Virus record (IMG/VR): IMGVR_UViG_3300025018_000406
Span: 1 to 30,976 of that record
DNA: 30,976 nucleotides
Direction: 5' to 3' (one strand)
Source: a virus
Taxonomy: Duplodnaviria; Caudoviricetes
Within the stretch, counting starts at the first letter, position 1; each line of letters opens with the position of its first letter. Shown in pieces: positions 2,429 to 19,933 of this stretch. Position numbers and translations under genes: made by a program. The notes below the pieces were generated by a model that had not been told where the DNA came from, made no database searches, and worked only from the letters and a program-made list of their open reading frames with translations.

Positions 2429-3943
2429 ATGTCATCACTAAGAATTGAAGAGATCAGCAACACAACCGAAGAATTGATGTTAGCAGGGATGATAACCAGT
2501 ACTCCTTACTTGTCCTGGTTGAAAGACAGATTTAAACCGCAGTACATGCGCAATGAGCAAGTCGGTTTACTGGCTGAACTTATACTGGAATACTTTGAAA
2601 TGCATGGGGAGGCACCGAATTCAAGTATCAGGGAATTATTGGCATCAATCGTTGATCATATAACGGTAGAAGATGCCACAATAGCAAAGAATCTGTTGCG
2701 TAAAATATCTGAGAGTTATGGTGACAGGGAGGTTTCTTTTGATGTCCTGTCCGATACTACCCTGGATTATTTTGAAACACGCTCCATTGAGGTATTGGTA
2801 GAAAAGTTAAGTGGATTAGCAAAGCGCGGTAAAACGGATGAGGCGATAGAGGAGGTGCACAGATGGGTTGAAAACCCTATGAGCAGTGTCATTGGGGCTA
2901 TTTCCCCTTTTGACACCACCTTTGCAGAAGCAATACTTTCCTCACAGAAACCTTTGTTTCGATTCAGTAATGATCTGGATAGAGTTTTACCGATACAGGC
3001 AAAGAATAAGTTCTACACCTTTGTTGGTGGTACAAAATCAGGTAAGTCACAATGGTTGGGTTGGTTGGGGTCAGAATTCTTGGCGCATGGTTTAAAAGTG
3101 GTTATATGGGAATACGAGTTAACCCAGATAGAATTTCTGCACAGGTCGCTTTGTGCTATTACTGGCAAAGATATCGATGGTAACTCAACAGACACCGAAG
3201 TCACCACGGAGCTATCCGTCTTTGACTGTACAAAGAATCGTGATGGTTCCTGTGAAAATCCAAATAGACCAGTACAAGACGGTATTGATTCCTATGATCT
3301 GTATGAGGAGGATGTTTGGATACCTTGTACCGCTTGTCGTGGTACAGAATTATTCAATCCCTGTGTGTGGAAGGAGCCTTTTAAGAAACAGGTGATCAAC
3401 AATGTTGTTTCTTTGAAGGCGGAACAGGTTAAATGGAGTAGACAGTATGGGGATAATGTACGGATCTTCAATAGAGATCCAAGTACCCAGACAGTAAAGG
3501 ATTTAAAGAATGAGTTAGAAAGATTACGGATATCGGAAGGATTTGTACCAGACGCAATAATCATTGATCATGCAGATAATATCCAGTCAAGCTCAAAGTA
3601 TAAAGATAAGCGGCATGAACTGAATAATATCTGGTCTGAATTATCTACCCTCTCAAAACACGGTTATCTTATCTGGACTGCTTCACAGACGAACAGAGCA
3701 GGTTGGAATAAAGAATGGATTACTACAGATATGATTGGAGAGGATGCCGGAAAATTAATGATTTGTGATGGTGTTGTGTTGATCAATCAATGGAAATCTG
3801 ATACAGTTGATGAATACTACTGGAACACCCAGAGGTTACGGGCAGCATACTTCAGGGGCCAGAAATTACCATCATTCGATCTGAAAGTTATTCACGATTT
3901 TTCAAGATACATTGCTTGTTTGGACTGTGCAGTATTTAGATGA
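2429..3943 (+). CDS. dnaB: DnaB-family (SF4) replicative helicase with Cys-rich insertion
   Basis: Walker A GGTKSGKS, catalytic WEYEL, Walker B IIIDHAD, and ASQTNRAG motif. Confidence 0.9.
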   Translation: MSSLRIEEISNTTEELMLAGMITSTPYLSWLKDRFKPQYMRNEQVGLLAELILEYFEMHGEAPNSSIRELLASIVDHITVEDATIAKNLLRKISESYGDREVSFDVLSDTTLDYFETRSIEVLVEKLSGLAKRGKTDEAIEEVHRWVENPMSSVIGAISPFDTTFAEAILSSQKPLFRFSNDLDRVLPIQAKNKFYTFVGGTKSGKSQWLGWLGSEFLAHGLKVVIWEYELTQIEFLHRSLCAITGKDIDGNSTDTEVTTELSVFDCTKNRDGSCENPNRPVQDGIDSYDLYEEDVWIPCTACRGTELFNPCVWKEPFKKQVINNVVSLKAEQVKWSRQYGDNVRIFNRDPSTQTVKDLKNELERLRISEGFVPDAIIIDHADNIQSSSKYKDKRHELNNIWSELSTLSKHGYLIWTASQTNRAGWNKEWITTDMIGEDAGKLMICDGVVLINQWKSDTVDEYYWNTQRLRAAYFRGQKLPSFDLKVIHDFSRYIACLDCAVFR

Positions 3944-3952
3944 AAAATATAC

Positions 3953-3984
3953 TTGACAATGATTGTAAGTTTACTTACAATCAT
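3953..3984 (+). promoter_or_regulatory. Sigma70 promoter overlapped by a perfect palindromic operator
   Basis: TTGACA (3953-3958), 17 bp, TACAAT (3976-3981). The inverted repeat ATGATTGTAAGT-TT-ACTTACAATCAT (3959-3984) covers the spacer and the -10 box. Confidence 0.75.
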
Positions 3985-4008
3985 AACTTATAAGGAAAGG
4001 AGAAAGGA

Positions 4009-4074
4009 ATGCATCTAGTCAGTAAAACATTTAGTTTTTGTGCTGCACACATGTTGGTTACTTCATACACAGAA
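4009..4074 (+). repeat. 66-bp direct repeat, copy 1
   Basis: Matches 5186-5251 at 65 of 66 positions (C4012 vs T5189). Confidence 0.95.
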
Positions 4075-4104
4075 GCTAGAATTAAATTAATGGGGATATT
4101 ATGA
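4009..4104 (+). pseudogene. Truncated queD 5' fragment (31-aa mini-ORF MHLVSKTFSFCAAHMLVTSYTEARIKLMGIL)
   Basis: The first 22 codons match queD at 5186. Strong AGGAG RBS. The TGA stop overlaps the ATG of the HNH-QueD gene. Confidence 0.8.
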
Positions 4105-5168
4105 AATGTAACGAATGTAATGGTGAAATTCACTCCATGGTGCATTTCTTTAAAGGGAAGTGTGATAAGCAAAAGAACAAGATAATGGATGGTGTTAATT
4201 GCATTATCGATGCCCATAACGATATTATGCTAAAAGATGTGGCAGTTCTATTAATAAAAGCATATCCATTTCTGACCATGGCTTCTGGTGGAAGACTAAT
4301 CAGAGAAAGAAGAACACACACTGGTGTTAATTCGTGGAAAATAATGGCTGAAAACAGAACAGGAAAAGATAATCCAGTATATAATCATGGTGTTATAGAC
4401 AGAATAAAGAATTCGGTAAAAGAGCGATGGAAATCGGGTGATTATTCAAATAGAATAAATGGTATGAAAGGAAAGAGAAAATTGGCTAGTCCAGTGTATA
4501 AAATTAATACACATACACTGCCTATATTCGGTGAAATAAATTATGTAAAATTTCTCTCACTTTTCCATAATGTGGATACCTGTGCACAATGCGGTTCAAT
4601 GGATAAAAGAATGAATGTCCATCATATAGATGAGAATAATAAAAATTATTTGCCATCTAATCTTGAACCATTATGTGTTAACTGTCATACGAAATATCAT
4701 TACACAAGGCACAAACAACCGTTTACAATAATCGTTAAGTCATTCTCTTTTGCTGGTGCACACAATCTTCCGCTACACAAAGGACTTTGTAATTTTCAAC
4801 ATGGTCATGAATGGAAACTGGATATAGCTATTAAAAAGAGGGTAAATCCAGATACAGGGATGGTTGTTGATTTTTCCTACTTAAAAGAACTTGTGAACAT
4901 GGCGGTTATAGATGAGTTTGATCATTCGAATATGAATGAACACCTAAATAATCCAACTGCCGAAAATATAGCTATGCTCATTTGGTTCAAATTAATGTAT
5001 TCGGGATTAAAAGGAATACATTCAATTAAAGTATGGGAGGGCGATGGCTCTTATGTTGAGATAGGAATGGATGATGCTTTTCACTACCTCAATGGTATAT
5101 ATGATGGTTGTGTATTTGCTATTACTGACAATGGTAAGGTGAAAATTGATAGATTAAAAGTTAAATAA
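4101..5168 (+). CDS. HNH endonuclease-QueD (6-carboxytetrahydropterin synthase) fusion
   Basis: NUMOD3-like segments (TGKDNPVY, GMKGK) and an HNH domain (CAQC...VHHIDENNKNYLPSNLEPLCVNCHTKYH). A complete QueD follows: FAGAHNL, CNFQHGH, GMVVDFSYLK, FDH, NPTAEN, VWE. Confidence 0.88.
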   Translation: MKCNECNGEIHSMVHFFKGKCDKQKNKIMDGVNCIIDAHNDIMLKDVAVLLIKAYPFLTMASGGRLIRERRTHTGVNSWKIMAENRTGKDNPVYNHGVIDRIKNSVKERWKSGDYSNRINGMKGKRKLASPVYKINTHTLPIFGEINYVKFLSLFHNVDTCAQCGSMDKRMNVHHIDENNKNYLPSNLEPLCVNCHTKYHYTRHKQPFTIIVKSFSFAGAHNLPLHKGLCNFQHGHEWKLDIAIKKRVNPDTGMVVDFSYLKELVNMAVIDEFDHSNMNEHLNNPTAENIAMLIWFKLMYSGLKGIHSIKVWEGDGSYVEIGMDDAFHYLNGIYDGCVFAITDNGKVKIDRLKVK

Positions 5169-5185
5169 TATGCACAGGGGAAAAC

Positions 5186-5251
5186 ATGTATCTAGTCAGT
5201 AAAACATTTAGTTTTTGTGCTGCACACATGTTGGTTACTTCATACACAGAA
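5186..5251 (+). repeat. 66-bp direct repeat, copy 2 (start of intact queD)
   Basis: Matches 4009-4074 with one mismatch. Confidence 0.95.
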
Positions 5252-5635
5252 CAGGCGCAGAAAGTACATGGGCATAACTATTCTGTGGATGTGGTGTTCG
5301 AATCTTCGGAGTTGAATCAGGATGGCATGGTTGTTGACTTTGGTAAGATCAAGGATATTATCAATCCCATTATTGATGATTGGGATCATAAGATGATTCT
5401 GTTGGAAGGTACTGCGGCGGAGAAAGACCACAGTAAAGTGTTTCTGCCTGTTAATCCTACTGCGGAGAACATGGCTCGGATACTTTACCTGAAGATCGAG
5501 GAACAAATACTTTGCAACTTCGGTGGTAATTCGGACACTCGTGAACGATCCTCGGCCGGTTATCCTCGTATTCTTCGGTTGAGGGCTGTACGGGTATCTG
5601 AAACAAACAGCGCATGGGCGGAATACACAAAATGA
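5186..5635 (+). CDS. queD: QueD/PTPS-family protein with Ala at the catalytic Cys position
   Basis: FCAAH, HGHNY, GMVVDFG, WDH, NPTAEN and VSET motifs. The CxxxHGH motif reads AQKVHGH. Confidence 0.88.
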   Translation: MYLVSKTFSFCAAHMLVTSYTEQAQKVHGHNYSVDVVFESSELNQDGMVVDFGKIKDIINPIIDDWDHKMILLEGTAAEKDHSKVFLPVNPTAENMARILYLKIEEQILCNFGGNSDTRERSSAGYPRILRLRAVRVSETNSAWAEYTK

Positions 5636-6249
5636 AAGTCTTTCTCAATGAAAAGTTTGTCACGATAAGCGGTGAGGTTGGTATTATTCCTCAAGGGCAG
5701 CTGGTATCGGTCATCCGACTACAGGGCTGTAATTTACGCTGTTCTTATTGTGATGCAATGGACAGTCAGGGTTTGTCTTTGGAAAATGGGGAAAATTTAG
5801 ACAGCCTGGTTGAGTGGGTGAACGATAATGATCTACCACTGTTAATAACTGGTGGAGAACCACTGCTACAAATTGAAATAGTAGAGATACTGGTACGTAG
5901 ATTGTCCGAGCATCTACCGGTTCAGGTTGAAACAAATGGTACTATGCCTGTATTTGGAATACCATCAAATGTCTGTGTGGTTATGGATTATAAACTGGAT
6001 AATCCACCAGACACTGACAACCTTATGCTGTTACAAAGCAATGACTATTTGAAATTCGTGGTGAGTAGCGCAGCAGAATTAAACTTAACCATGAGTATCA
6101 TCAATATGTTTAATGCTGATTTTAAGCCAACGATTGCAATATCGTCTACGGATAAAGCATTGTACCCAGAAATAATAGAAGAAATTAAGAGCAGAAATAG
6201 GAGGGTATTGGTTAATACTCAAATACATAAATTTATCGGAGTTCGTTAG
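5632..6249 (+). CDS. queE: 7-carboxy-7-deazaguanine synthase (radical SAM)
   Basis: F.TISGE, IRLQGCNLRCSYCD, ITGGEPL, VETNGT, LKFVV and TQIHK motifs. ATGA overlap with queD supports the start at 5632. Confidence 0.9.
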   Translation: MKVFLNEKFVTISGEVGIIPQGQLVSVIRLQGCNLRCSYCDAMDSQGLSLENGENLDSLVEWVNDNDLPLLITGGEPLLQIEIVEILVRRLSEHLPVQVETNGTMPVFGIPSNVCVVMDYKLDNPPDTDNLMLLQSNDYLKFVVSSAAELNLTMSIINMFNADFKPTIAISSTDKALYPEIIEEIKSRNRRVLVNTQIHKFIGVR

Positions 6250-7080: not shown

Positions 7081-7704
7081 ATGAGAAAAAAGAAGCAGAA
7101 CCCATTTATACTTGACGAGATAATGCAACTTTCCAGAGAGAAGCAACTACAGATAGCTGCAGAACTGATTATTGAGGCGTCTGGTTACTCATTGAAAGAT
7201 CCTAATTTTGCAGGAACACCGGATCGTTTTGCCCGATCAATGTCTGAGTTTTTATGGACTAAAAAAAGGATCAAGAAAGAACTGGAAAAAGTTATTGCTG
7301 TGGAGTTCCCTACTAAATATCAGGGAATGATTTTTTCTAAAAATATTCGGGTATATTCTTGGTGCCCACATCATATACTGCCAATACAATACAATGTGCA
7401 TATCGGATACATTCCTGCGAAGAAAAAGGCAGTGGTTATTGGGGCCTCTAAATTAGCACGGGTGGCTGATATTCTCAGCAGGAGAATGGTTTTGCAGGAA
7501 GATTACATAATGGACATTGCTGATGTGTTAGAAAAGAAAATAAACCCAATAGGGATAGCAGTTGTCCTGGAGGGCATCCACGATTGTATGAAGATACGGG
7601 GCATAAAACAACAGTCAGCTACCTTTGATATGTCGGAAATGCGTGGGGCATTTGCTGATAACGAAAAAACCAGAAATGAATTCTTCCATCTTATGGCAAA
7701 GTAA
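7081..7704 (+). CDS. folE: GTP cyclohydrolase I
   Basis: TPDRFAR, SWCPHHILP, IGASKLAR, LQED and HDCMKIRG motifs. Confidence 0.95.
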   Translation: MRKKKQNPFILDEIMQLSREKQLQIAAELIIEASGYSLKDPNFAGTPDRFARSMSEFLWTKKRIKKELEKVIAVEFPTKYQGMIFSKNIRVYSWCPHHILPIQYNVHIGYIPAKKKAVVIGASKLARVADILSRRMVLQEDYIMDIADVLEKKINPIGIAVVLEGIHDCMKIRGIKQQSATFDMSEMRGAFADNEKTRNEFFHLMAK

Positions 7705-7725
7705 TTCCCTTTACCTAGGAGTATC

Positions 7726-7905
7726 ATGAAAATCAACACAATAGAACGGTTTAATCCATTAGTGATAACTATCGAGAACGAGGATGAGCTACGTGGTTTG
7801 TTCACTCTCATTGGAAAATTAGAAAGTGCAGGTTTTTTCTTGACTGAATTAGAAAGCATGATTCTGGAGGCGCTTTCTGACTACTGTAAGGAATCTATAA
7901 CATGA
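7726..7905 (+). CDS. Hypothetical protein (59 aa, MKINTIERFNPLVITIENEDELRGL...)
   Basis: AGGAG RBS. Fills the folE-thyX gap and its stop overlaps the thyX ATG. Not in the ORF track. Confidence 0.7.
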   Translation: MKINTIERFNPLVITIENEDELRGLFTLIGKLESAGFFLTELESMILEALSDYCKESIT

Positions 7906-8522
7906 AAATAATTAAACCTTCAGTGGAATTACTCTGGATTACACCTGAACCAGAAAAGCAAATCGAACTAGCCGGACGTACCTGTTACAAGTCGGAAGAT
8001 AAAATTACTCCTGAGTCATCTGCTGAGTTCTGCAAGCGGATGGTTAAATCAGGGCATCATGCCATGATTGAACATGCCTGTGCATCGTTTAAGATCATTA
8101 CAGATAGAGGTATAAGTCATGAGATCGTGAGACATCGTTTAGCCAGCTATGCTCAGGAGAGTACTAGATACTGCAATTATGGTGGGGAAAAGTTTGGTAA
8201 TGAGTGCTCATTTATTCTACCTCCTGGTATGACTAAAAAACAGTATAAACTGTGGTGTGGCGCGTGTGGTTATGCTGAAGCAGCATATATGGACGCACTT
8301 GATACAGGATGTCCTCCTCAGATTGCTCGATCAGTATTACCAAACTGTCTGAAGACTGAACTTGTTATGACCTGTAATTTTCGTGAATGGCGGCACTTCA
8401 TTGCCCTGCGGGCAAGTAAAGCAGCTCATCCGCAAATCAGGCCGTTAGCAATTAGTATTCACAGTATATTGAATGACATTGCACCAAATATATTTGGTGA
8501 TTTATTACCAGAGTGGAACTGA
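7902..8522 (+). CDS. thyX: Flavin-dependent thymidylate synthase
   Basis: GHHAMIEH, RGISHEIVRHRLASYAQESTRY (ThyX motif), ARSVLP and NFREWRHF. Confidence 0.96.
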   Translation: MKIIKPSVELLWITPEPEKQIELAGRTCYKSEDKITPESSAEFCKRMVKSGHHAMIEHACASFKIITDRGISHEIVRHRLASYAQESTRYCNYGGEKFGNECSFILPPGMTKKQYKLWCGACGYAEAAYMDALDTGCPPQIARSVLPNCLKTELVMTCNFREWRHFIALRASKAAHPQIRPLAISIHSILNDIAPNIFGDLLPEWN

Positions 8523-8523
8523 T

Positions 8524-8655
8524 ATGATAAGAGTGGCGGAATTGGAAGACGCTAAGATCCTCGTAAGTGAGCTGAAAGCGAGGTTGCCTGAAATAATGGC
8601 AGAACATACAATCGAGCAATCATGCTGGTTCGAATCCAGCCTCTTATCATTTTAA
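8524..8655 (+). CDS. Hypothetical protein (43 aa)
   Basis: ATG directly after the thyX stop; fills the gap to the next gene. Confidence 0.4.
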   Translation: MIRVAELEDAKILVSELKARLPEIMAEHTIEQSCWFESSLLSF

Positions 8656-8674
8656 ATTTAACTGGGGATTCAAC

Positions 8675-9034
8675 GTGAAAAAGATCATCTTCACTTTATT
8701 GGTTTTGTCGCTTGCAGCAATAGTTCAAGCAAAACCAGCAACTATTCAAGTAGAGTTTGAGTACAACACACCAGCTCAGGCTTTCAATCTGTATATGGAT
8801 GGTAAGAAGGTCTGCAATACCAATGAACCGAACGTCATGAACTGTACCAATATTGAGATACCTTTCGGTGTGCATATGTTTACCATGACTGCAGTTGTTG
8901 ATAATGTAGAAACCCAACACAGTCCTGCTTATGTATGGACTTATGCACCGGAACCTATTGGGCCTCCGGTATTTATTAATTTCAGTATTTCTGTTGACGG
9001 TAAAGATGTACAGGTGGTACCAGCGAATCAATAA
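8675..9034 (+). CDS. Exported beta-rich protein with signal peptide
   Basis: MKKIIFTLLVLSLAAIVQA signal peptide. Fn3/Ig-like pattern (FNLYMDG...FTMTAV...ETQHS) with a Cys pair. Confidence 0.7.
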   Translation: MKKIIFTLLVLSLAAIVQAKPATIQVEFEYNTPAQAFNLYMDGKKVCNTNEPNVMNCTNIEIPFGVHMFTMTAVVDNVETQHSPAYVWTYAPEPIGPPVFINFSISVDGKDVQVVPANQ

Positions 9035-9060
9035 TCATAAACAAAAAAGGAGATGTACGT

Positions 9061-9228
9061 ATGGAAGAGACATTGCAGAAGATCAAGGACACATATCGGG
9101 AATTTCTTGTAGATGCCCAACTGTGCATAGAGAAAGGCAACAAGACTGCTGGTAAGCGGTCAAGGAAGTACAGCACAGAGGTAGCAAAACTGATGAAGGA
9201 TTGGCGGAAAGCCACACTAGAAGTATAA
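9061..9228 (+). CDS. Histone H1-like nucleoid protein (Hc1 family, short form)
   Basis: MEETLQKIKDTYREFLVDAQLCIEKGNKTAGKRSRKYSTEVAKLMKDWRKATLEV contains the family signature EKGNK.AG.R.RK.S.E..K..K..RK. AGGAG RBS. Not in the ORF track. Confidence 0.85.
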   Translation: MEETLQKIKDTYREFLVDAQLCIEKGNKTAGKRSRKYSTEVAKLMKDWRKATLEV

Positions 9229-9233
9229 TAACT

Positions 9234-9320
9234 GAGCCAGCCAGAGAATCGTATCCATATTTTAAATACTCGCCGGGAGTCTCTAAAATGTTGAAGCATT
9301 TCTGGCTGGCTCTTTTTATT
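9234..9320 (+). terminator. Long stem-loop with terminal U tract
   Basis: GAGCCAGCCAGA (9234-9245) pairs perfectly with TCTGGCTGGCTC (9301-9312), followed by TTTTTATT. Inner hairpin ACTC-GCCGG-GAGT. Confidence 0.55.
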
Positions 9321-9330
9321 AAAGGACAAC

Positions 9331-10329
9331 ATGATGGATAAAAAGATTGTTAAGGCCGAAATACTGTTCAGTCGCCAATGCCCATTACATTGCTCCTACT
9401 GTGCAATGAAGAACAGCAAACAGAATACTCGTTCTATTGATCAATGGAAACGTGGTATGGTAGAATTGAAAAGACTTGGGTGTAAACTGGTGGCATTCTA
9501 CGGGGCAGAACCGTTGATGGAGTTCGACAAGCTGAAGCATGTAGTTGGGTATTGTGAAGACGATATTGGTATGGATACAACAATTATTACTTCTGGTGCT
9601 GTACCTGACTTTGAACATAAGTTACTGGAGCTTTATGAATACGGGGCTAAAAGTTTATCGATGTCCTTTGATCCGTCACCATCAGATATATCAACAAAGA
9701 ACAAATCTGATAATGCACTTGAATCTCTTATACGGTTCAGGGAATTGAAAGGTATACGAGATGTGGCAGCTATCGCCACACTAAATGCCCACAACTTCAT
9801 GGAGTTCCCTAATATGGTACGTAGAATGACCAGACGTGGCATATGGTCATTCTTTGATTTCATTCATACAGATCGTGGGCAGGTTGGTACGAAATGTTCC
9901 AATGTACCACAAGAAATGATGCTGACAAAAGAGCACTATCCAGCCATAAAGGATATGCTGAGAGAAGTTTTGTTTCTTAAAGGACGTGGATTTCTTTGTC
10001 ATACCTCACAATACTTTGTTGATGTTATGAATGAACGTATGGATACCGGTAATCTATATAGTTGGACATGTGCTAATCAAGAACCCTCATGGGTGACTAT
10101 TGATTGCGATGGTATGGTTTACCCTTGTGATGACTTTACTGGTACACATACACCTACAGATATGTTGGATATTTATAACAAATGGGATGTGTTTTCCTCT
10201 GCCTGTACGTTAGCTGTGCAGCAGGCTGATTGTCGGTGTGCTTGGAACACACACATTGACGCACATGGCATAATGAACGAAACAGTGCAGCTCAGTGATT
10301 ATGTACATGGTAAATACGTTGTTTCATAA
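9331..10329 (+). CDS. Radical SAM protein with SPASM/twitch-like C-terminal domain
   Basis: CPLHCSYC (CxxxCxxC), YGAEPL, and C-terminal WTCA...WVTIDCDGMVYPCDD...C...CRC. Confidence 0.9.
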   Translation: MMDKKIVKAEILFSRQCPLHCSYCAMKNSKQNTRSIDQWKRGMVELKRLGCKLVAFYGAEPLMEFDKLKHVVGYCEDDIGMDTTIITSGAVPDFEHKLLELYEYGAKSLSMSFDPSPSDISTKNKSDNALESLIRFRELKGIRDVAAIATLNAHNFMEFPNMVRRMTRRGIWSFFDFIHTDRGQVGTKCSNVPQEMMLTKEHYPAIKDMLREVLFLKGRGFLCHTSQYFVDVMNERMDTGNLYSWTCANQEPSWVTIDCDGMVYPCDDFTGTHTPTDMLDIYNKWDVFSSACTLAVQQADCRCAWNTHIDAHGIMNETVQLSDYVHGKYVVS

Positions 10330-10474
10330 TTCAGCAACTGTGTAGTCCTGCTGTTGCTGAAAATGAGCGGAGATGCTTACGGACGATAAAATAATCAGAT
10401 ATGCATAGAATAGGATGTGTTGCCTTAAAATTACTGTGACGCACAATTTAAGCGGTTTTATATATGAGGAGAAA

Positions 10475-11152
10475 ATGAGCAGACAGAAGGAAATACTTTG
10501 CTTGTCTGGTGGTCTTGATTCAGTTATCGCCTGGTACTATTTAGGCAAGCCACCGACAGTTTACTTTCATACCAATCTACCACACTGTGACAAGGAATTG
10601 CATTGTGTGCAGAGATTGACTGGTATGGATACGATTATCGATAAATCTCTGGACTTCTCTTCTGAGAAGGAGATCTACATACCACATAGAAACTTACTCT
10701 TTGCTTCACGGGCAAGTGTCTATGCAAAGAAAGTATGGATTGCTGGTTTGAAAGATGATATGGTAGAAGACAAGAATGAGGATGCCTTTTCTATGATGTC
10801 TCTCTGTTTGTCTACTGTTGGTAAGGAGACTGTCTTTGTTGAATCCCCTTTCTGGCAGAAGACAAAGACAGATATTGTAATGTGGTTTAAACATAAATAC
10901 AGTGATTCTATGGATGTAGACAGGCTGCTGAACGAGATGTCAATTTCCTGTTATGGTGGTGGTGATAAACCATGCTATCAGTGTGAATCATGTTTTCGCA
11001 AGGCATGTGCCATGTTCAACGCTGGTCTGTCGTATAAGTTTGATAATTTTGCCATGATAAAAGAGTACCGAGTAAAGGCACTGCAGAATAAATACGTAAT
11101 GTCACGTAATTTGGATATAATTAAGTTTACCAATATGTACATACCATCTTAA
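10475..11152 (+). CDS. queC: QueC-like 7-cyano-7-deazaguanine synthase (PP-loop ATPase)
   Basis: LSGGLDS, YIPHRNLL, SPF...TKTDIV and zinc site SCY...PCYQCESCFRK. GAGGAG RBS supports the start at 10475. Confidence 0.85.
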   Translation: MSRQKEILCLSGGLDSVIAWYYLGKPPTVYFHTNLPHCDKELHCVQRLTGMDTIIDKSLDFSSEKEIYIPHRNLLFASRASVYAKKVWIAGLKDDMVEDKNEDAFSMMSLCLSTVGKETVFVESPFWQKTKTDIVMWFKHKYSDSMDVDRLLNEMSISCYGGGDKPCYQCESCFRKACAMFNAGLSYKFDNFAMIKEYRVKALQNKYVMSRNLDIIKFTNMYIPS

Positions 11153-11157
11153 AGTTT

Positions 11158-11234
11158 ATCCCCTGCAGGGCCACCTATGACCGTAAGGAGTAGGGACGGG
11201 TTGGTCCCCGTTGGTAATGCCTACTGCAGGGGAT
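11158..11234. other. GC-rich intergenic multi-stem structure
   Basis: ATCCCCTGCAG (11158-11168) and CTGCAGGGGAT (11224-11234) form a perfect 11-bp closing stem around inner hairpins. Confidence 0.55.
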
Positions 11235-11261
11235 GATTAAATTTCACTTTTTGGAGACAAT

Positions 11262-11477
11262 ATGCTGCGTGAAGTAGAAGTTGGGACAATGAGAAGGGCA
11301 ACTATGAGTGTACAGTGTAAGAATGGTGAAGAGTTCATTAAGAGGGACTTTCCTGGTGACCTACTCTCGCATAACACAAATACTGTATGTTTCTGGGATG
11401 GTAGTGACCTGCTGATTATCCCTATTGATCAGACTATTTGGGTTAAAATTCATTTTGAGGATAGTACGGATGAATAA
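11262..11477 (+). CDS. Hypothetical protein
   Basis: GGAG RBS; overlaps the next gene. Confidence 0.6.
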   Translation: MLREVEVGTMRRATMSVQCKNGEEFIKRDFPGDLLSHNTNTVCFWDGSDLLIIPIDQTIWVKIHFEDSTDE

Positions 11478-11778
11478 ACCTGTCTACTTTTTTGATATTG
11501 ATGGTACGATTACCCATGAGACTGCTGGTTGGGACTATGCAAACCGTACACCAAGAATAGATGTCATCGACAAGATGTACCAGATTGCAGTAACTGGAAC
11601 TATTGTTCTATGGACGGCACGATTAGATTGTGATCGTGAAGTTACTGTCCAATGGTTGAAGAAGCATAATGTACCATATGCCTATATTATCATGGGAAAA
11701 CCGTTCTGGGATGTCTATATCTGCGATAAATCCTTCAATGTTGAGGAGTGGTTGGCTAATGGGCAGAACACCAAATAG
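11470..11778 (+). CDS. Minimal HAD-superfamily phosphatase
   Basis: FFDIDGTI (motif I), LWTAR (motif II), GKP and YICDK (motifs III/IV). GAGG RBS. Confidence 0.85.
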   Translation: MNKPVYFFDIDGTITHETAGWDYANRTPRIDVIDKMYQIAVTGTIVLWTARLDCDREVTVQWLKKHNVPYAYIIMGKPFWDVYICDKSFNVEEWLANGQNTK

Positions 11779-11947
11779 ACCTATGTGTGCATGGTGCAAA
11801 AAGAAAACAGATAATTTCATTTATGTACACAAAATGGTACAATGTTTTGAATGTGCACAGCAGGAGGTATCGGCTTTGGTGAGGAAACGCAAGGAACAGA
11901 ACGCCGAATACATGCAACAATTACGCAAGTCAAAAGGGTTATTATAA
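11759..11947 (+). CDS. Small zinc-finger hypothetical protein
   Basis: GAGGAG RBS; CAWC...CFEC. Confidence 0.6.
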   Translation: MGRTPNRPMCAWCKKKTDNFIYVHKMVQCFECAQQEVSALVRKRKEQNAEYMQQLRKSKGLL

Positions 11948-11955
11948 GGAAGACA

Positions 11956-12156
11956 ATGGCTAAGAAAAGACTGAAACAGATTTATGTACTCTCGTTTACC
12001 AATAAAGAAAACCAGATAACGAATGAGGGCTTTATAAGCCAATATGCTGCAAAGAATAGGAAGTATGCACTAGAAGTAACTGGTAAATATAACCAGTTGA
12101 GCCTAACCAATGTACCAATAGTAGATAACAATGTTGAGGTAGACCATGTATCTTAA
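11956..12156 (+). CDS. Hypothetical protein (66 aa)
   Basis: AAGGA RBS before ATG 11956. Confidence 0.6.
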   Translation: MAKKRLKQIYVLSFTNKENQITNEGFISQYAAKNRKYALEVTGKYNQLSLTNVPIVDNNVEVDHVS

Positions 12157-12305
12157 CGTTTAATAATGTAATGGAATAACTCTTTACAATTGCAATACGG
12201 GAAGAATATAACCAAACAAAAAATATATTACCAATATGTATAAAGTACAATAGGCACGTATCTACCATAGAGAGAATAATATATGGTATAACTCACAAAA
12301 TATAG
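12138..12305 (+). pseudogene. Possible remnant of an HTH domain
   Basis: The frame reads GRPCILTFNNVME*LFTIAIREEYNQTKNILPICIKYNRHVSTIERIIYGITHKI*, resembling C-terminal HTHs of HNH homing endonucleases. It has an internal stop at 12177 and no start codon. Confidence 0.35.
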
Positions 12306-13202
12306 GTGGTCCAATTGAACACAAGAGATAACCTATTGAAATTAAACGTTTTGCTCGATTCCGGTGCTTACTCAGCTGATCAACAAAACACCGTAATAGA
12401 TGTACATCAGTACATAGCATACATAAAAGAGCATAAACCAGATATTTATTTCAATCTTGATGTTATAGGTGATGATGTTGGTTCATGGAAGAATCAGGCT
12501 GTAATGGAAGATGCAGGATTGAATCCGTTGCCAGTATTCCATATAGAGGATGATATAAAATATCTGTATCGCTGTATTGACAACTATGAATACTTTGCAT
12601 TAGGTGGGTTGGCTGGTGGAGCATCTGAGCAGACACGACAAAGATTTCTTGATGTTTGTTGGGATATTATCTGTGATACTCCTGACCGTCTTCCCAAATG
12701 CAAAGTACATGGGCTTGGTCTGGCTTCTCCTCTGCTTGTCGCCAGGTATCCATTCTATTCCATTGACACTGCTAGCGGTATTCATTACGGTCGTTATGGT
12801 ATCATTATTATTCCTCGTATGTGTAGACGGGGTAATCCTAATTATACGGAACCTCCATACACGATATATGTTACAGAGAGATCGACGGCACAGAAAATAG
12901 AGGGGAAACATATCAAGTCTGTTTCCCCTGATTTACGTGGGTGGATATACAGATACATTGCAAGTCGTGGGTTCGAGGTGGGTGAGACAGTTGTGGAGAC
13001 AGTTGGGCCTGACTATGTACTGCAGGAGAATGAAAAGTTTACCGACAAGTCACATACAGCTATTGAACGGTTAATCAGTGTTGGTGTATTCAGTGATGGT
13101 ACTATACGGGATTACTTTAACATCGACTTTTTTATGCAGATGGAAAAAGTAATACCTGCATGGCCATGGCCATATCGACCATCTGTACGCCCACTATTTT
13201 AA
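12306..13202 (+). CDS. dpdA: TGT-fold (queuine tRNA-ribosyltransferase-like) protein; probable DpdA-type DNA 7-deazaguanine transglycosylase
   Basis: LLDSGAYSA, NLDVIGD, PVFH, ALGGL, KVHGLG and YPFYSIDTAS motifs, clustered with folE/queD/queE/queC. Exact start uncertain. Confidence 0.8.
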   Translation: MVQLNTRDNLLKLNVLLDSGAYSADQQNTVIDVHQYIAYIKEHKPDIYFNLDVIGDDVGSWKNQAVMEDAGLNPLPVFHIEDDIKYLYRCIDNYEYFALGGLAGGASEQTRQRFLDVCWDIICDTPDRLPKCKVHGLGLASPLLVARYPFYSIDTASGIHYGRYGIIIIPRMCRRGNPNYTEPPYTIYVTERSTAQKIEGKHIKSVSPDLRGWIYRYIASRGFEVGETVVETVGPDYVLQENEKFTDKSHTAIERLISVGVFSDGTIRDYFNIDFFMQMEKVIPAWPWPYRPSVRPLF

Positions 13203-14433: not shown

Positions 14434-14646
14434 ATGGCACCAAATAAATATGTGCAATTTCTCAATACACATCGGATTGAGGACGGGTTGTTGCGGGAGT
14501 TTCTGCATAAGGAGAAGTTTATTGCAGCACAACAGCAAATACAGGCAACAATGGTGGCATACCAGAACAAAATAAATATGCTGAATAAATTGTCTATTGC
14601 AATTACTGAAGATGCAATAGCAGAAATGTTACAGGAGGAGGAATGA
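14434..14646 (+). CDS. Hypothetical protein
   Basis: Fills the dnaN-pol gap; ATGA overlap with pol. Confidence 0.65.
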   Translation: MAPNKYVQFLNTHRIEDGLLREFLHKEKFIAAQQQIQATMVAYQNKINMLNKLSIAITEDAIAEMLQEEE

Positions 14647-17204
14647 GAATCGCTTCTTTCTGGGGAAATGGGACGGCTGTTTCTGAAAAATGTGCTGTTT
14701 GTGGGCTACACAGTAAATGTGCCACACCATTCACGAAAGTACATGGTGATGGTAATTTACGCACCCTGTTAGTAATGGAGAAACCTTCAGAGCAGGAAGA
14801 ACGGGGCAGGTCTGCATTTAGCGGATCAACAATGGCAAAGGTTACTGATGGGTTTGCTGATTTTGGAATTGATATTCAGCATGAGTTCTGGAAGTGTAAT
14901 GCCATTCAGTGTTATACAAAGAAGGTGACAGATGCTGAGCCAGAACTGTGCAGAAATAATCTAATAAAAATAATCCATAAGTATAAACCAAAACATATAA
15001 TAACCGTAGGGTACACAGCAACAAAGACAGCTATTGGGCATATGTGTGAGCTACCAAAAAGAGCAGACTCTTTACCTTTTCATCATATTCCTGTACATGA
15101 GTATGGTGCTTGGGTTCATCCTATTATGAACCCAGCGAATATGAAGACACGTAATGAGATGGCTTATATGGACAGGTCGTATAAGTCAATCATGCAGGAT
15201 ATCAAGCTGAATAGGAAGATGGTTGAAGTTAATCCATTCGAAAAAGTAGAGGTACTGACAGATTACGATGACGTACTTGATGCTATTGAATGGTTATACA
15301 CTATCGATGATCCATTATTTGCATGGGATACAGAAACTACGGGGTTAAAACCACATTGGGAAGAGCACTTTATTACCTCTGTTGGTATTGCTGCTCGTGA
15401 TCGGGTTTTCTCTTTTCCATTATACCATGATGAGGCATACGGTGGGGATTACAGTTTATCTAAAGATGTAGAAAATGCCTTAGTCGATGTGATGCAGGAT
15501 AGTAGGTTTAAGAAGATTGCTCACAACAGAAAGTTTGATGAACAATGGTTAGAGGTCACAGCAGACTGCATTGTAAATGGTGGTATTCAATGCACAGCCA
15601 CAAATCAGCACTTACTTGATCACCGAGCAAATACCAAGGGATTAAAGTGGCAGGCTTTCTGTAGATGGGGAGTTGTTGAATATGATAAACGGGCAAAGCC
15701 ATATATTGAAGCAGAACAGCGCGGTGCTAAAGGTAAGAACAGGATGCAGAAAATGCCCCTGAGAGAGCAACTTTTGTATGTAGGTGCTGATGCCTACCTT
15801 ACCTTGAAACTGAGTGATGAGCAGGACGGAGAGTATGCAGAGAGTGATAATCCTTTGAAGCATCGACCTCGTTTATTGTTTCATGAATCAACTGATACTC
15901 TGAAGAGGATTGAAAAGCGTGGAATACCATCAGATAGCAAATATTATAAGCAGATGGAAATTGAACTGCTTGACAAGATGGCAAAGGAACAGAAAGCAAT
16001 TGATATTGATCCTGGTGTTATTGAGTTTAATAGTCGGTACAGTAAGAATTTTAAACAAACCTCACCAATAGACCTAAAAGAAGTTCTGTTCAACATCAAG
16101 GGTTATGATGCGAGTACAGTGAATAAGACGTATAAGGGTAATGTGTCGGTGGATGAGAAGGCGTTGAAGGATATTGACGATCCATTATGTGCTTCAATCC
16201 TTAACTACCGTAAATTATATAAACTGTATAATACGTACATGGCACAGTTTCTTTTTGAGGAGGTAGATGGGATAATACACCCTAACTTTAATCTGGTAAT
16301 ACCAAGGAGCTATCGTGGAAGTTGTTTGAATCCTAACATACAGAACGTGCCAAAGCATGATAAGTATGCCAATAAAGTGTGCAGGACGGGACTACATCCT
16401 AAGAAGGGGATGGGTATGGGGGAGATGGACTTTACAGGTATGGAGGTTGGTACTTCAGCCGCATACCATAAAGATCCTAATTTCATAAATTATCTGGTAA
16501 CTCCTGGTACTGATATGCATCGGGATAATACCTGCGATCTGTGGTGTGTTTCACCACAGGAAGTACACAAGAATTTACGGTATCATACAAAGAACTGTTG
16601 GACATTCCCTCAATTCTATGGTGATTGGTATGGTTCTTGTGCCCCTGAACTGTGGAAGCAGGTTATCACGAAGAACAATATGGCTCTGGAGACTGGTGAG
16701 ACAATCGTTGAAAGGCTACATGATAATAATATCCACAATCTCGATGATTTCCTTAAACACTGTCAGGATGTAGAGGATAAGATGTGGAATGAACGATTCA
16801 AGGTGTATACGGCTTGGAAGAAAGAAGTGAACGACTTCTATTTGAAGTATGGGTATGTTGAGACTTTTATGGGATTTAGATTTACTGGTTTATTAGATAC
16901 AAAACAGACCAGTAATTACCCGATCCAAGGCACAGCATTTCATTTACTGTTATGGTGTCTGAACAAACTTGACAAATGGATGGTGTCTGAGAAACTTTGG
17001 ACATACATATGTGGTCAGATTCATGACAGTATTGTATTTTGTTGGCACCCTGAAGAATTAGAATACGTAAAAGAGAAAATGGTACAGGTATGCACGGTTG
17101 ATCTTGCTAATGAATTTGAATGGATCAATGTTCCTATGGGTATTGATATTGAGGTATCAAAACTGTATGAGGAAGGTGGAAATTTTAGTAACATCGGAGA
17201 TTAA
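14643..17204 (+). CDS. polA: Family A DNA polymerase with N-terminal UDG-like domain and 3'-5' exonuclease
   Basis: CAVCGLHSKC Fe-S-type cluster and UDG fold. Exonuclease motifs WDTETTG, AHNRKFD, YVGADA. Polymerase motifs PNIQNVP, MDFTGMEV, RYHTK...F..FYG, NYPIQGTA, QIHDSI. Confidence 0.93.
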   Translation: MRIASFWGNGTAVSEKCAVCGLHSKCATPFTKVHGDGNLRTLLVMEKPSEQEERGRSAFSGSTMAKVTDGFADFGIDIQHEFWKCNAIQCYTKKVTDAEPELCRNNLIKIIHKYKPKHIITVGYTATKTAIGHMCELPKRADSLPFHHIPVHEYGAWVHPIMNPANMKTRNEMAYMDRSYKSIMQDIKLNRKMVEVNPFEKVEVLTDYDDVLDAIEWLYTIDDPLFAWDTETTGLKPHWEEHFITSVGIAARDRVFSFPLYHDEAYGGDYSLSKDVENALVDVMQDSRFKKIAHNRKFDEQWLEVTADCIVNGGIQCTATNQHLLDHRANTKGLKWQAFCRWGVVEYDKRAKPYIEAEQRGAKGKNRMQKMPLREQLLYVGADAYLTLKLSDEQDGEYAESDNPLKHRPRLLFHESTDTLKRIEKRGIPSDSKYYKQMEIELLDKMAKEQKAIDIDPGVIEFNSRYSKNFKQTSPIDLKEVLFNIKGYDASTVNKTYKGNVSVDEKALKDIDDPLCASILNYRKLYKLYNTYMAQFLFEEVDGIIHPNFNLVIPRSYRGSCLNPNIQNVPKHDKYANKVCRTGLHPKKGMGMGEMDFTGMEVGTSAAYHKDPNFINYLVTPGTDMHRDNTCDLWCVSPQEVHKNLRYHTKNCWTFPQFYGDWYGSCAPELWKQVITKNNMALETGETIVERLHDNNIHNLDDFLKHCQDVEDKMWNERFKVYTAWKKEVNDFYLKYGYVETFMGFRFTGLLDTKQTSNYPIQGTAFHLLLWCLNKLDKWMVSEKLWTYICGQIHDSIVFCWHPEELEYVKEKMVQVCTVDLANEFEWINVPMGIDIEVSKLYEEGGNFSNIGD

Positions 17205-18288: not shown

Positions 18289-18822
18289 ATGAGCAAAGAA
18301 TTTGATGTTGCTGATGCATTATCTCTGGATAAATTGGCACTTGATTATGAGTGGTTACGGCAGACGTATTTAGTCAATCAGGCCACTAATTTATTGGCAG
18401 ATATTACATTTAAGCGGGACAGAGCAAAAGCAAAGTTGGCGTATGAAAGTGCAAAGTTGGCAAATTATATTCGGTCAGAACCTGATGAATATAATATCAA
18501 AGGTACTGTTACTGATGGAAAGGTTCGGGAGATAGTTACGACGGACTACAAGATTTATGAGCTTGAACAGACCTTGCACGAATGGGAAGCGGAACTCGTT
18601 GCTGCTAATGGTGTAAGGAGGGCTTTGGAGCACAAGAAAGCAGCATTGGAGGAACTTACCCGATTATTTCTATCTGGGTACTGGGCAACACCGTATATAT
18701 CCAAGGAGGACAGGGATAAGTACAAAGAAAACGACAAGTATGACCAAGGGGATGTACTAAGCGAAAACACCCGTTTACAAAATCGGGCAAACAAAGGGAG
18801 TGACGAATATGGCGAAGAGTAG
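18289..18822 (+). CDS. Helical protein, possibly a UvsY-like recombination mediator
   Basis: Coiled-coil character, 'TDGKVREIV...ALEHKKAALEEL', located upstream of SSB and RecA. Function inferred from context. Confidence 0.5.
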   Translation: MSKEFDVADALSLDKLALDYEWLRQTYLVNQATNLLADITFKRDRAKAKLAYESAKLANYIRSEPDEYNIKGTVTDGKVREIVTTDYKIYELEQTLHEWEAELVAANGVRRALEHKKAALEELTRLFLSGYWATPYISKEDRDKYKENDKYDQGDVLSENTRLQNRANKGSDEYGEE

Positions 18823-19933
18823 ATTCAGAAAAACTGGTGGATACACTGAGGAGTTGAAGAAACGGACAGAGCAGAGCACAGGTGGTGGTTTTATCACTAT
18901 CTTCCGCGATGATCTTAATCTTCCTATCTGGAAGGAGCCGAAGGAGGGGGATGTTGGTATTGATATCATTCCGTATATTGCTTCAGCAAATCACCCACAG
19001 GCGAAGGAATGTGCACCAGTATACAAACTGGAGCTTTGGGTACATACTCGTGTAGGTCCAGAGAAAGGTGACTATGTATGCCTTCGGAACTTTGGACAGG
19101 AGTGCCCACTTTGCCAAGCACGTTATGATGAACTGGCAAGTGCCAATCCTAGAAAGAAAATCGCAGATGATCTGAAAGGAAGCCACCGTGCAATATACAA
19201 TGTTGTTGTTGTCACGAATGAGAAGGAAGAAGCAAAAGGTGTACAGATTTGGACGGCAAGTACATATTTGGCAGAACAACATTTCCAGTCAACAGCGAAA
19301 AATCGTAAGACTGGGGAAAAGATTCCTTTTTCTTGTCCTGATACTGGTCGTACTATTTGGTTTACAGTTGAAGGGAGTAAACTGACTAAGGCATTTGCTG
19401 GTATCACATTAGAAGAACGGCCTGAGCCCATTTCTGATGATATATTGGATGCAGCTTTTACTCTGGAAGAATGTATTATTATTCCGAAGAAATCAGATCT
19501 TCAGAAGATTGCTGAGATAATCGTGGGCAGTGGCAACCTCGATGATGATGATTTGCCAGATCCACCATCTCGGCGTGGGCGCAGTACACAGGATGACGAG
19601 CCGCCTCGTAGACGGGCTGCAAAAGAGCCAGAAGAAGATACACCACCTCCTCGTAGACGGGCTGCCCAGCAGGAAGAGGACGAGCCGCCTCGTAGACGGG
19701 CTGCCCAGCAGGAAGAGGACGGCGATCAGCAGGAAGATGACGGCGATCAGCAGGAAGAAGAAGATACACCACCCACACGTAAAAGGATAACGAAAGAGGA
19801 AGAGGACGAGCCGCCTCGTAGACGGGCTGCAAAAGAGCCAGAAGAAGATACACCACCTCCTCGTCGCAGATCTACTCAGAAAGATGATGGGGATGCACCA
19901 CCACGCAGAACAAGAATTAGAAGAGAGGAATAA
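18809..19933 (+). CDS. Single-stranded DNA-binding protein (gp32-like) with long repetitive charged tail
   Basis: IDIIPY, WVH, YVC...ECPLC zinc site, AIYNVV, GVQIW and PDTGR. The C-terminal ~130 aa are low complexity. Directly upstream of recA. Confidence 0.72.
   Translation: MAKSRFRKTGGYTEELKKRTEQSTGGGFITIFRDDLNLPIWKEPKEGDVGIDIIPYIASANHPQAKECAPVYKLELWVHTRVGPEKGDYVCLRNFGQECPLCQARYDELASANPRKKIADDLKGSHRAIYNVVVVTNEKEEAKGVQIWTASTYLAEQHFQSTAKNRKTGEKIPFSCPDTGRTIWFTVEGSKLTKAFAGITLEERPEPISDDILDAAFTLEECIIIPKKSDLQKIAEIIVGSGNLDDDDLPDPPSRRGRSTQDDEPPRRRAAKEPEEDTPPPRRRAAQQEEDEPPRRRAAQQEEDGDQQEDDGDQQEEEDTPPTRKRITKEEEDEPPRRRAAKEPEEDTPPPRRRSTQKDDGDAPPRRTRIRREE
19595..19864 (+). repeat. Coding repeats in the SSB tail
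   Basis: Identical 60-bp copies at 19595-19654 and 19805-19864, with 39-bp-period and 21-bp-period tandem units between them. All periods are multiples of 3. Confidence 0.9.

Follow-up and report, generated by a model that had tools for sequence, protein, structure and literature searches.

An HNH endonuclease fused to a complete QueD in phage genomes: a probable homing element that carries its own replacement for the queD it disrupts

The locus

The DNA analysed (the window) is the whole of IMG/VR virus record IMGVR_UViG_3300025018_000406 (Duplodnaviria; Caudoviricetes), 30,976 nts in length. Its content is phage-like, with Pfam or PHROG matches to a helicase, DNA polymerase A, RecA, ligase and a 7-deazaguanine gene set. 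The preliminary description reported that codons 1–22 of queD are present twice. This is borne out: the two direct repeats, 4009–4074 and 5186–5251, are 65/66 identical, lie 1177 nts apart and each begin exactly at the ATG, the sole mismatch being at base 4. Between them is a gene whose product is an HNH endonuclease fused to a second, complete QueD. The features of the region are as follows.

2429..3943, + strand: DnaB-like helicase (weak Pfam match, below cut-off); an upstream neighbour common to several relatives
3953..3981, + strand: candidate sigma-70-like promoter upstream of the queD stub, TTGACA-17-TACAAT, matching 11/12 of the consensus
4009..4074, + strand: repeat copy 1, resident queD codons 1–22 (the 5′ stub), behind the original Shine Dalgarno-like AGGAG at 3998–4002
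4009..4104, + strand: 31 aa stub ORF, its stop overlapping the fusion start (ATGA), with a second Shine Dalgarno-like sequence, GGGGA, at 4092–4096
4075..4077, + strand: Ala codon, probably the last resident codon (judged from relatives, which read E-A-C)
4101..5168, + strand: HNH-QueD fusion gene, 355 aa (Pfam; AlphaFold model); GC 0.335, GC3 0.275
4101..4580, + strand: N-terminal region, mostly helical in the AlphaFold model and presumed DNA-binding; NUMOD3 unconfirmed
4581..4703, + strand: predicted Zn-binding HNH domain (PF01844, PHROG HNH families, conservation)
4731..5063, + strand: complete QueD domain of the element, a predicted enzyme, with H221, C230, H234, H236, H275, E288 and E313
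5169..5185, + strand: 17 nt spacer with Shine Dalgarno-like AGGGG, unlike the sequence preceding copy 1
5186..5251, + strand: repeat copy 2, codons 1–22 of the downstream queD (repeat comparison)
5186..5635, + strand: full-length resident-type queD, 149 aa, with Ala24 (nts 5255–5257) at the catalytic Cys position
5632..6249, + strand: queE (radical SAM; Pfam, PHROG)
7081..13202, + strand: rest of the 7-deazaguanine pathway (folE 7081–7704, queC 10415–11152, TGT/DpdA-like 12306–13202; Pfam, PHROG)

The segment between the repeats is AT-richer than its surroundings, as had been claimed (GC 0.336 against 0.400 for the window). The GC3 of the fusion ORF is the lowest among 24 long ORFs, that of the downstream queD being 0.44, and the low value is common to both halves of the fusion. 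The upstream repeat copy had been described as keeping promoter and ribosome binding site and as being translationally coupled to the fusion. The ATGA overlap and the Shine Dalgarno-like AGGAG are there; the promoter at 3953–3981 is a consensus match only, 11 promoter-like sites having been counted against 8.5 in shuffles. The 17 nt spacer before the downstream copy probably arrived together with the element.

A repeat search revealed no terminal inverted repeat at the insertion, and no transposase domain was found in the window with Pfam. An insertion sequence or transposon was accordingly rejected, there being neither of these nor a comparable direct repeat at 21 other fusion loci. An intein or a group I or group II intron was likewise rejected, as Pfam and Rfam gave no splicing domain or ribozyme around the nuclease. 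The lack of intron and intein hallmarks noted earlier thus stands: there is no intein Pfam match in the window or in 27 family members, and Rfam on 3700–5700 gave a single chance-level snoRNA match below gathering score and no ribozyme.

[Elsewhere in the window, a second radical SAM gene at 9331–10329, between folE and queC, possibly provides an extra base-modification step. The DNA polymerase A at 14643–17204 bears an N-terminal uracil-DNA-glycosylase-superfamily domain (Pfam), and the gp32-like single-strand binding protein at 18800–19933 has a repetitive, acidic, Pro/Arg-rich tail. The remaining exact 20-mer repeats have spacings of 21–210 nts and extend to about 19739.]

Integrity of the duplicated structure

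The read evidence comprises short-read unitigs from 8 of 22 listed sequencing runs, and no single unitig covers the whole stretch. This favours the suspicion that the repeat or the fusion is an artefact of assembly or sequencing, as do a protein record that joins copy 1 to the downstream body (P0179, considered below) and a unitig of run X10, depth 2, that runs from 5189 back to 4013 (1177 back). Excision of a 1177-bp circle, a tandem copy or an artefact of the graph could each account for the X10 joint. In run X1, possibly the source sample, depth is 33 on the repeat unitig, 14–17 on the flanks and 17.5 on the insert, along which no alternative letter occurs; run X3 has the same pattern (repeat 15.7 against 6–10). 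Since the repeat is at doubled depth, the insert is at flank depth and two other assemblies, L023 and L024, hold both repeat copies, the structure is not an assembly artefact. A sequencing error that removed a stop, the other source of a false fusion considered in the preliminary description, is countered by a frame open in at least 43 lineages. An artefactual origin is therefore scarcely credible.

The element has alleles that vary at 4074, 4200 and 4711. No certain empty allele of the window phage was found in contig and viral searches. An exact 24-nt search of viral contigs had 0 matches, and a 4074-to-5252 joint is absent from the contigs of the 8 runs, with which an empty allele is still compatible as the unitigs end at the repeat. 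[Divergent alleles of the helicase (3557–3682, 12 differences in 126 nts) and of queE (5988–6145) co-occur, and so related strains were present in the same samples.]

The fusion protein

The segment had been described as encoding a NUMOD3-like region, HNH and a divergent QueD with CxxxHGH. HNH and QueD are confirmed and NUMOD3 is not: none of 27 family members has a NUMOD3 Pfam match at E ≤ 0.1. (A ROS/MucR-like zinc finger is present in the N-terminal region of some relatives.) The HNH domain is matched by Pfam at aa 161–201, with 25.3 bits against a cut-off of 21.4, and C161, C164, H174, H175, N187, C192, C195 and H196 are all in place. The motif of a homing nuclease (PF01844) is accordingly intact, with its four Cys and with H175, N187 and H196, the catalytic residues of the HNH motif.

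The QueD part has a PTPS Pfam match at aa 211–321 with 89.4 bits and is only 31% identical to the resident QueD. It has the sequence features of QueD (PTPS-I), namely Cx3HGH, a third His and the conserved Glu, as in PF01242 and the structures PDB 2oba and 4ntm; unlike these, it has a nuclease part of 200 residues at its N-terminus, to which no solved structure corresponds by sequence. In the AlphaFold model (mean pLDDT 82, pTM 0.58) the N-terminal part is helical, the HNH core is built of two strands and a helix, and the QueD domain follows. ESM Atlas gave HNH clusters only, at 0.86–0.90, which is a lead at most.

The downstream queD

The downstream copy had been thought to rebuild queD with a new ribosome binding site. 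It is full length and has its own distinct Shine Dalgarno-like AGGGG, but it does not look like a working queD. Its motif reads E-Q-A-Q-K-V-H-G-H, with Ala where the catalytic Cys of Cx3HGH or Cx4HGH is expected, and its sole nearby Cys is residue 11. Cys is present at that position in 5/5 of the closest relatives of the resident QueD, in 78/79 cellular QueDs and in 100/100 stand-alone viral or metagenomic QueDs (three rows that the pattern missed are counted as Cys, which is visible in their sequence). Because Ala replaces a Cys that is near-universal in relatives, the downstream copy is probably a dead enzyme. In the paralogue QueD2, the equivalent Cys-to-Ala change abolishes activity (PMC9894224). 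As the stop of the downstream queD overlaps the probable queE start at 5632, the dead frame may have been retained through coupling to queE.

The change in the Cys region starts at the exact base that ends the repeat. Loss of the Cys is somewhat more likely than not to be either a scar left by repair or a change by which the copy escaped cutting. In an alternative order of events, the Cys would have disappeared beforehand and the pathway would then have been rescued by the element. Record P0179, which joins the upstream start to the Cys-less body, is found on 1 contig, the downstream form on 10. If ancestral, it would mean that Cys loss preceded insertion; it may fit that order, but equally a collapsed assembly or excision between the repeats.

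The direct repeat does not extend to the family as one of its features. It has no counterpart at the 21 other fusion loci, and among the 43 clusters listed the lineage of the window is the sole one with a whole second queD.

Extent of the family

Other HNH-QueD fusions, the search for which had been suggested at the outset, were readily found. A protein search gave 31 matches of which 30 are HNH-QueD fusions, and a profile search gave 89 proteins with both domains, 85 being complete enough for alignment. Scans of viral and metagenome contigs yielded at least 102 loci. The fusion is present in at least 72 of these, with the window at least 73, and the fusion loci fall into at least 43 clusters at 90% identity. 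Alignment-based queries were needed, as queries with the single proteins (fusion or resident QueD) found nothing in viral contigs. Annotated phage records contained no fusion, their 6 matches all being to the QueD part only. In cellular genomes (11 of 64 parts scanned), a single fusion (L183) was found among 80 loci, and its match coordinates are identical to those of viral contig L002. The family is essentially viral.

Neighbouring genes vary. Upstream there are helicase, topoisomerase or HD-domain genes, and downstream most often queE. [In two loci, a TdeIII-like type II restriction endonuclease is directly after the fusion (L057:3277–4068, L075:589–1380).] In three, the neighbouring queE has an intein (Hint matches) with an HNH-like domain (L011:6678–8387, L039:6053–7645, L022:7350–8951), and the queD–queE pair is therefore a hotspot for homing elements. 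At L022:5822–6963, a different QueD, extended at its C-terminus, comes behind a queD stub whose end lies past HGH. The extension has a PHROG ‘endonuclease’ match (E 1.3e-4) and resembles a PD-(D/E)xK/Vsr-type nuclease. On these sequence matches, the L022 fusion is possibly a second, convergent element.

Insertion sites

The fusion stands behind the 5′ stub of a different queD in 9 of the 43 clusters among the matches listed. The stub is in frame with it in L002, L028 and L035 (also in protein P0032) and out of frame in L006, L011, L056, L061, L068 and the window. Eight of the stubs were called by motif (L075 was dropped, the match being to its own domain) and that of L068 by HMM; the stub motif did not occur once in 254 kb of control sequence. 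L058, in which a short repeat was seen, was rejected as a stub since the His-x-Leu motif is missing. The stubs belong to two QueD subtypes and, by the motif reading, have their ends within about two codons of the catalytic Cys on either side. The window stub reads Y-T-E-A and then diverges, while the resident's close relatives read E-A-C or Q-A-C and L171 reads Y-S-E-A-C. Given the relatives' E-A-C and the Ala codon at 4075–4077, the left junction would be immediately before the catalytic Cys codon, and its register matches that of the relatives' stubs.

L171, a phage with a plain queD, is instructive for L035. Over the stub, the two phages share 83% DNA identity; similarity breaks off two bases ahead of the Cys codon and returns at the queE ribosome site, with 69% identity over queE. 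As the alignment is read here, the rest of queD is replaced by the element in L035. The preliminary description had called for relatives with an empty queD site: L171 is one for L035, and the window phage's own was not found. The family therefore has occupied and empty alleles, as a homing element should (L035/L171, and 9 stubs at the Cys codon). In L061, the 5′ stub is accompanied by a 3′ remnant of the old queD right behind the element (16.5 bits).

The remaining 34 of the 43 lineages among the matches listed are stubless (5 of them have less than 150 nts upstream), and so most of the family leaves no direct trace of invasion. In addition, in L006, L011, L056 and L061 a Shine Dalgarno sequence for the fusion can arise from the H-x-G codons that precede the Cys, because of which the clustering of junctions could partly reflect selection. 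Both points suit an explanation in which the fusion is stable and domesticated, its QueD joined to a zinc module that binds DNA and is perhaps autoregulatory, and has been moved between phages by ordinary illegitimate recombination. The nuclease would not then drive the spread, and stubs would survive only where they give a frame or a ribosome site, as the Shine Dalgarno-like strings that overlap the stub ends in four lineages might be taken to indicate. However, the in-frame stubs (L002, L028, L035 and P0032) need no ribosome site, yet have the same end codon, and the window stub brings a separate Shine Dalgarno sequence, yet also ends there. Any breakpoint past the His would have been detectable, yet 9/9 are at the Cys.

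Spread of the fusion and decay of its nuclease

The element QueDs group together on trees, with 7 stand-alone rows nested among them (support 85), and are not a clean clade. They are far from the window's resident QueD, and the stub-bearing members are scattered. On a QueE tree (79 rows) the fusion label undergoes 12 changes, at least 6 of them forced by starred branches, as against 23 in shuffles; these are quick or FastTree trees built on few columns, with long branches and many unresolved forks, from sampling that is not neutral. With 12 changes versus 23, much of the inheritance is vertical: the label is clustered, which would suit domestication, yet it is not inherited as one unit. L035 pairs with the plain L171 and L002 with the plain L180, and the elements of L002 and L035 are 54% alike.

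H175 is kept in 66/85 fusions, and H175, N187 and H196 together in 58/85. The HNH motif is decayed in the other 27, counted by alignment columns as a strict HNH pattern over-called decay. The losses are dispersed over the tree, on which at least 7 changes are forced. The QueD residues H221, C230, H234, H236, H275 and E288 are kept in 85/85, a comparison that is biased because the collection profile and filter required a QueD match, though point losses of the QueD Cys would still pass. Even where H175 is gone, the zinc Cys (94–99%) and N187 (100%) persist. This retention of zinc ligands in decayed copies leaves room for domestication. On the other side, catalytic residues that are intact in 58/85 and repeatedly lost in the rest are as found in homing cycles. 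Taken with the junctions, domestication as the whole explanation is unlikely. In L078 (2300–2774) a stub is followed by an element-type QueD that has no HNH, with only linker or HNH-tail remnants, and L079 (4938–5432) has an element-type QueD with only such remnants. They probably represent the end stage after nuclease loss, as far as their sequences can be read. Patchy lateral spread and recurrent nuclease decay, both features of homing elements, are thus seen, on quick trees and with biased sampling.

The decay bears also on the alternative put forward in the preliminary description, a two-part enzyme whose nuclease, held on the QueD oligomer, attacks DNA that lacks 7-deazaguanine (of host or rival phage) and is so coupled to modification. 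That folE, queD, queE, queC and a TGT/DpdA-like gene are all in the window, and that most fusions are just before queE, would suit it. It is disfavoured by the recurrent loss of the HNH motif from proteins that retain QueD, and in L078 and L079 the domain is gone altogether. The one-codon stub ends and the L035/L171 replacement are unexplained by it. Moreover, QueD acts on a soluble pterin and not on DNA. A nuclease coupled to modification is, on this evidence, highly improbable.

Interpretation

The sequences make it likely that the fusion is a homing endonuclease that destroys the queD it meets and installs its own, fused copy instead. The proposal of a selfish element that invades a gene and brings along a copy of the encoded enzyme finds support in the clustered junctions, the empty-site pair, the patchy spread and the one-sided HNH decay. 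Domains, repeats, junctions, empty-site relative, spread and decay are the observations here; that the protein cuts DNA, that the element homes and that its enzyme is active is what we infer from them. The element's QueD is predicted to be a working replacement enzyme.

In a mixed infection, the fusion protein would nick or cut a plain queD at the Cx3HGH codons. The left broken end would be joined to the 5′ end of the element, giving a stub of 21–26 codons, and this stub would then drive the fusion, in frame or via translational coupling. The right end would normally rejoin at or near queE, with loss of the remainder of the old queD. The queD that the element carries is divergent and is presumed to be immune. 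After fixation the nuclease would decay and QueD be retained. In the window, right-hand repair would have resumed at the resident ATG, so that 66 nts were duplicated and a whole second queD was left. For this, the element would have been copied with the donor's next ribosome site before a switch back at the resident ATG. The start of the repeat at ATG, its mismatch at base 4 and the differing 17 nts suggest such switch-back repair, which we put forward by inference only.

A broader reading, to which the sequences incline us slightly, is that there is in prokaryotic viruses a class of self-complementing homing element. Its nuclease would be welded to the whole target enzyme and cut the rival allele at the active-site codon, with no splicing, and it could not be purged without losing the enzyme. 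Different nuclease folds would have come to queD independently (HNH, and the PD-(D/E)xK-like C-terminal fusion with stub in L022), and the window would represent a spared resident copy that gave up its Cys to escape cutting.

Relation to known elements

Homing endonucleases spare the gene of their host in several ways: they splice out, occupy intergenic sites or split the gene, or, as the WHO and mORF elements do, supply part of it. The yeast WHO elements at FBA1 replace the 3′ end of the gene and leave fragments (PMC7282813). There an enzyme gene is cut with no splicing, a cut-resistant replacement coding sequence is provided and a fragment of the old gene is left. HNH-QueD would likewise cut queD and bring a copy presumed to be resistant; the stubs, the L061 remnant and L035/L171 are the corresponding traces of old queD. 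The WHO nuclease, however, is intein-derived with a zinc finger and is the product of a separate gene downstream of the chimeric FBA1, only the 3′ half is replaced, and the elements build clusters (PMC7282813). In contrast, an HNH domain is here joined, in one reading frame, to an entire second enzyme, what is left of the 5′ end of the old gene is an orphan, and the setting is a phage. Among 27 family members there is no Hint or LAGLIDADG Pfam match, and the element QueD is whole, having an N-terminal strand and His of its own, with the stub orphaned or no more than a leader.

Fungal mitochondrial mORF hybrids, in Allomyces atp6 and in Glomus atp6, atp9, cox2 and nad3, are also similar (PMC3630166). 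An endonuclease ORF is inserted in a gene, a foreign gene copy is carried and the native part is displaced, sometimes in phase. Their nucleases are LAGLIDADG or GIY-YIG and the carried C-terminus completes the native N-terminus as a hybrid (same source), whereas the enzyme of the HNH-QueD element is complete and placed behind the nuclease. The HNH-QueD element works like WHO elements and mORFs and is a member of neither, because its nuclease differs, its enzyme is complete and the two are fused.

Among free-standing phage homing endonucleases, Aeh1 mobE in nrdA and T4 mobA in gene 60 are likewise unspliced HNH genes at a functionally critical place of a phage enzyme gene (PMC2988022). There the host gene is split and its pieces reassemble; with HNH-QueD, the host gene is abandoned and replaced. 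For the HEG-islands of ICP1-like phages too, homing nucleases are proposed to carry essential cargo genes. These are separate genes flanked by nucleases, and no fusion to the target enzyme is described in the sections of PMC10448857 drawn on here. The preliminary description knew of no account of this architecture, and a search of open-access literature found no paper on an HNH-QueD fusion (‘HNH’ and ‘homing’ are both absent from the main text of PMC10516641). The homing strategy is apparently unpublished.

Significance

Fusion to a complete replacement enzyme would be a further route by which a host is spared from homing damage. A selfish gene would in this way be tied to an essential DNA-modification step, and its decay would leave metabolic enzymes with dead nuclease domains, offering a path from selfish nuclease to domesticated domain. 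The same reading would explain the discordant ancestry of queD in phage 7-deazaguanine clusters, and a new target site for an HNH nuclease would follow from it, perhaps within modified DNA. In the window itself, the element QueD, the Cys-less resident copy and the junction form a rare three-way set.
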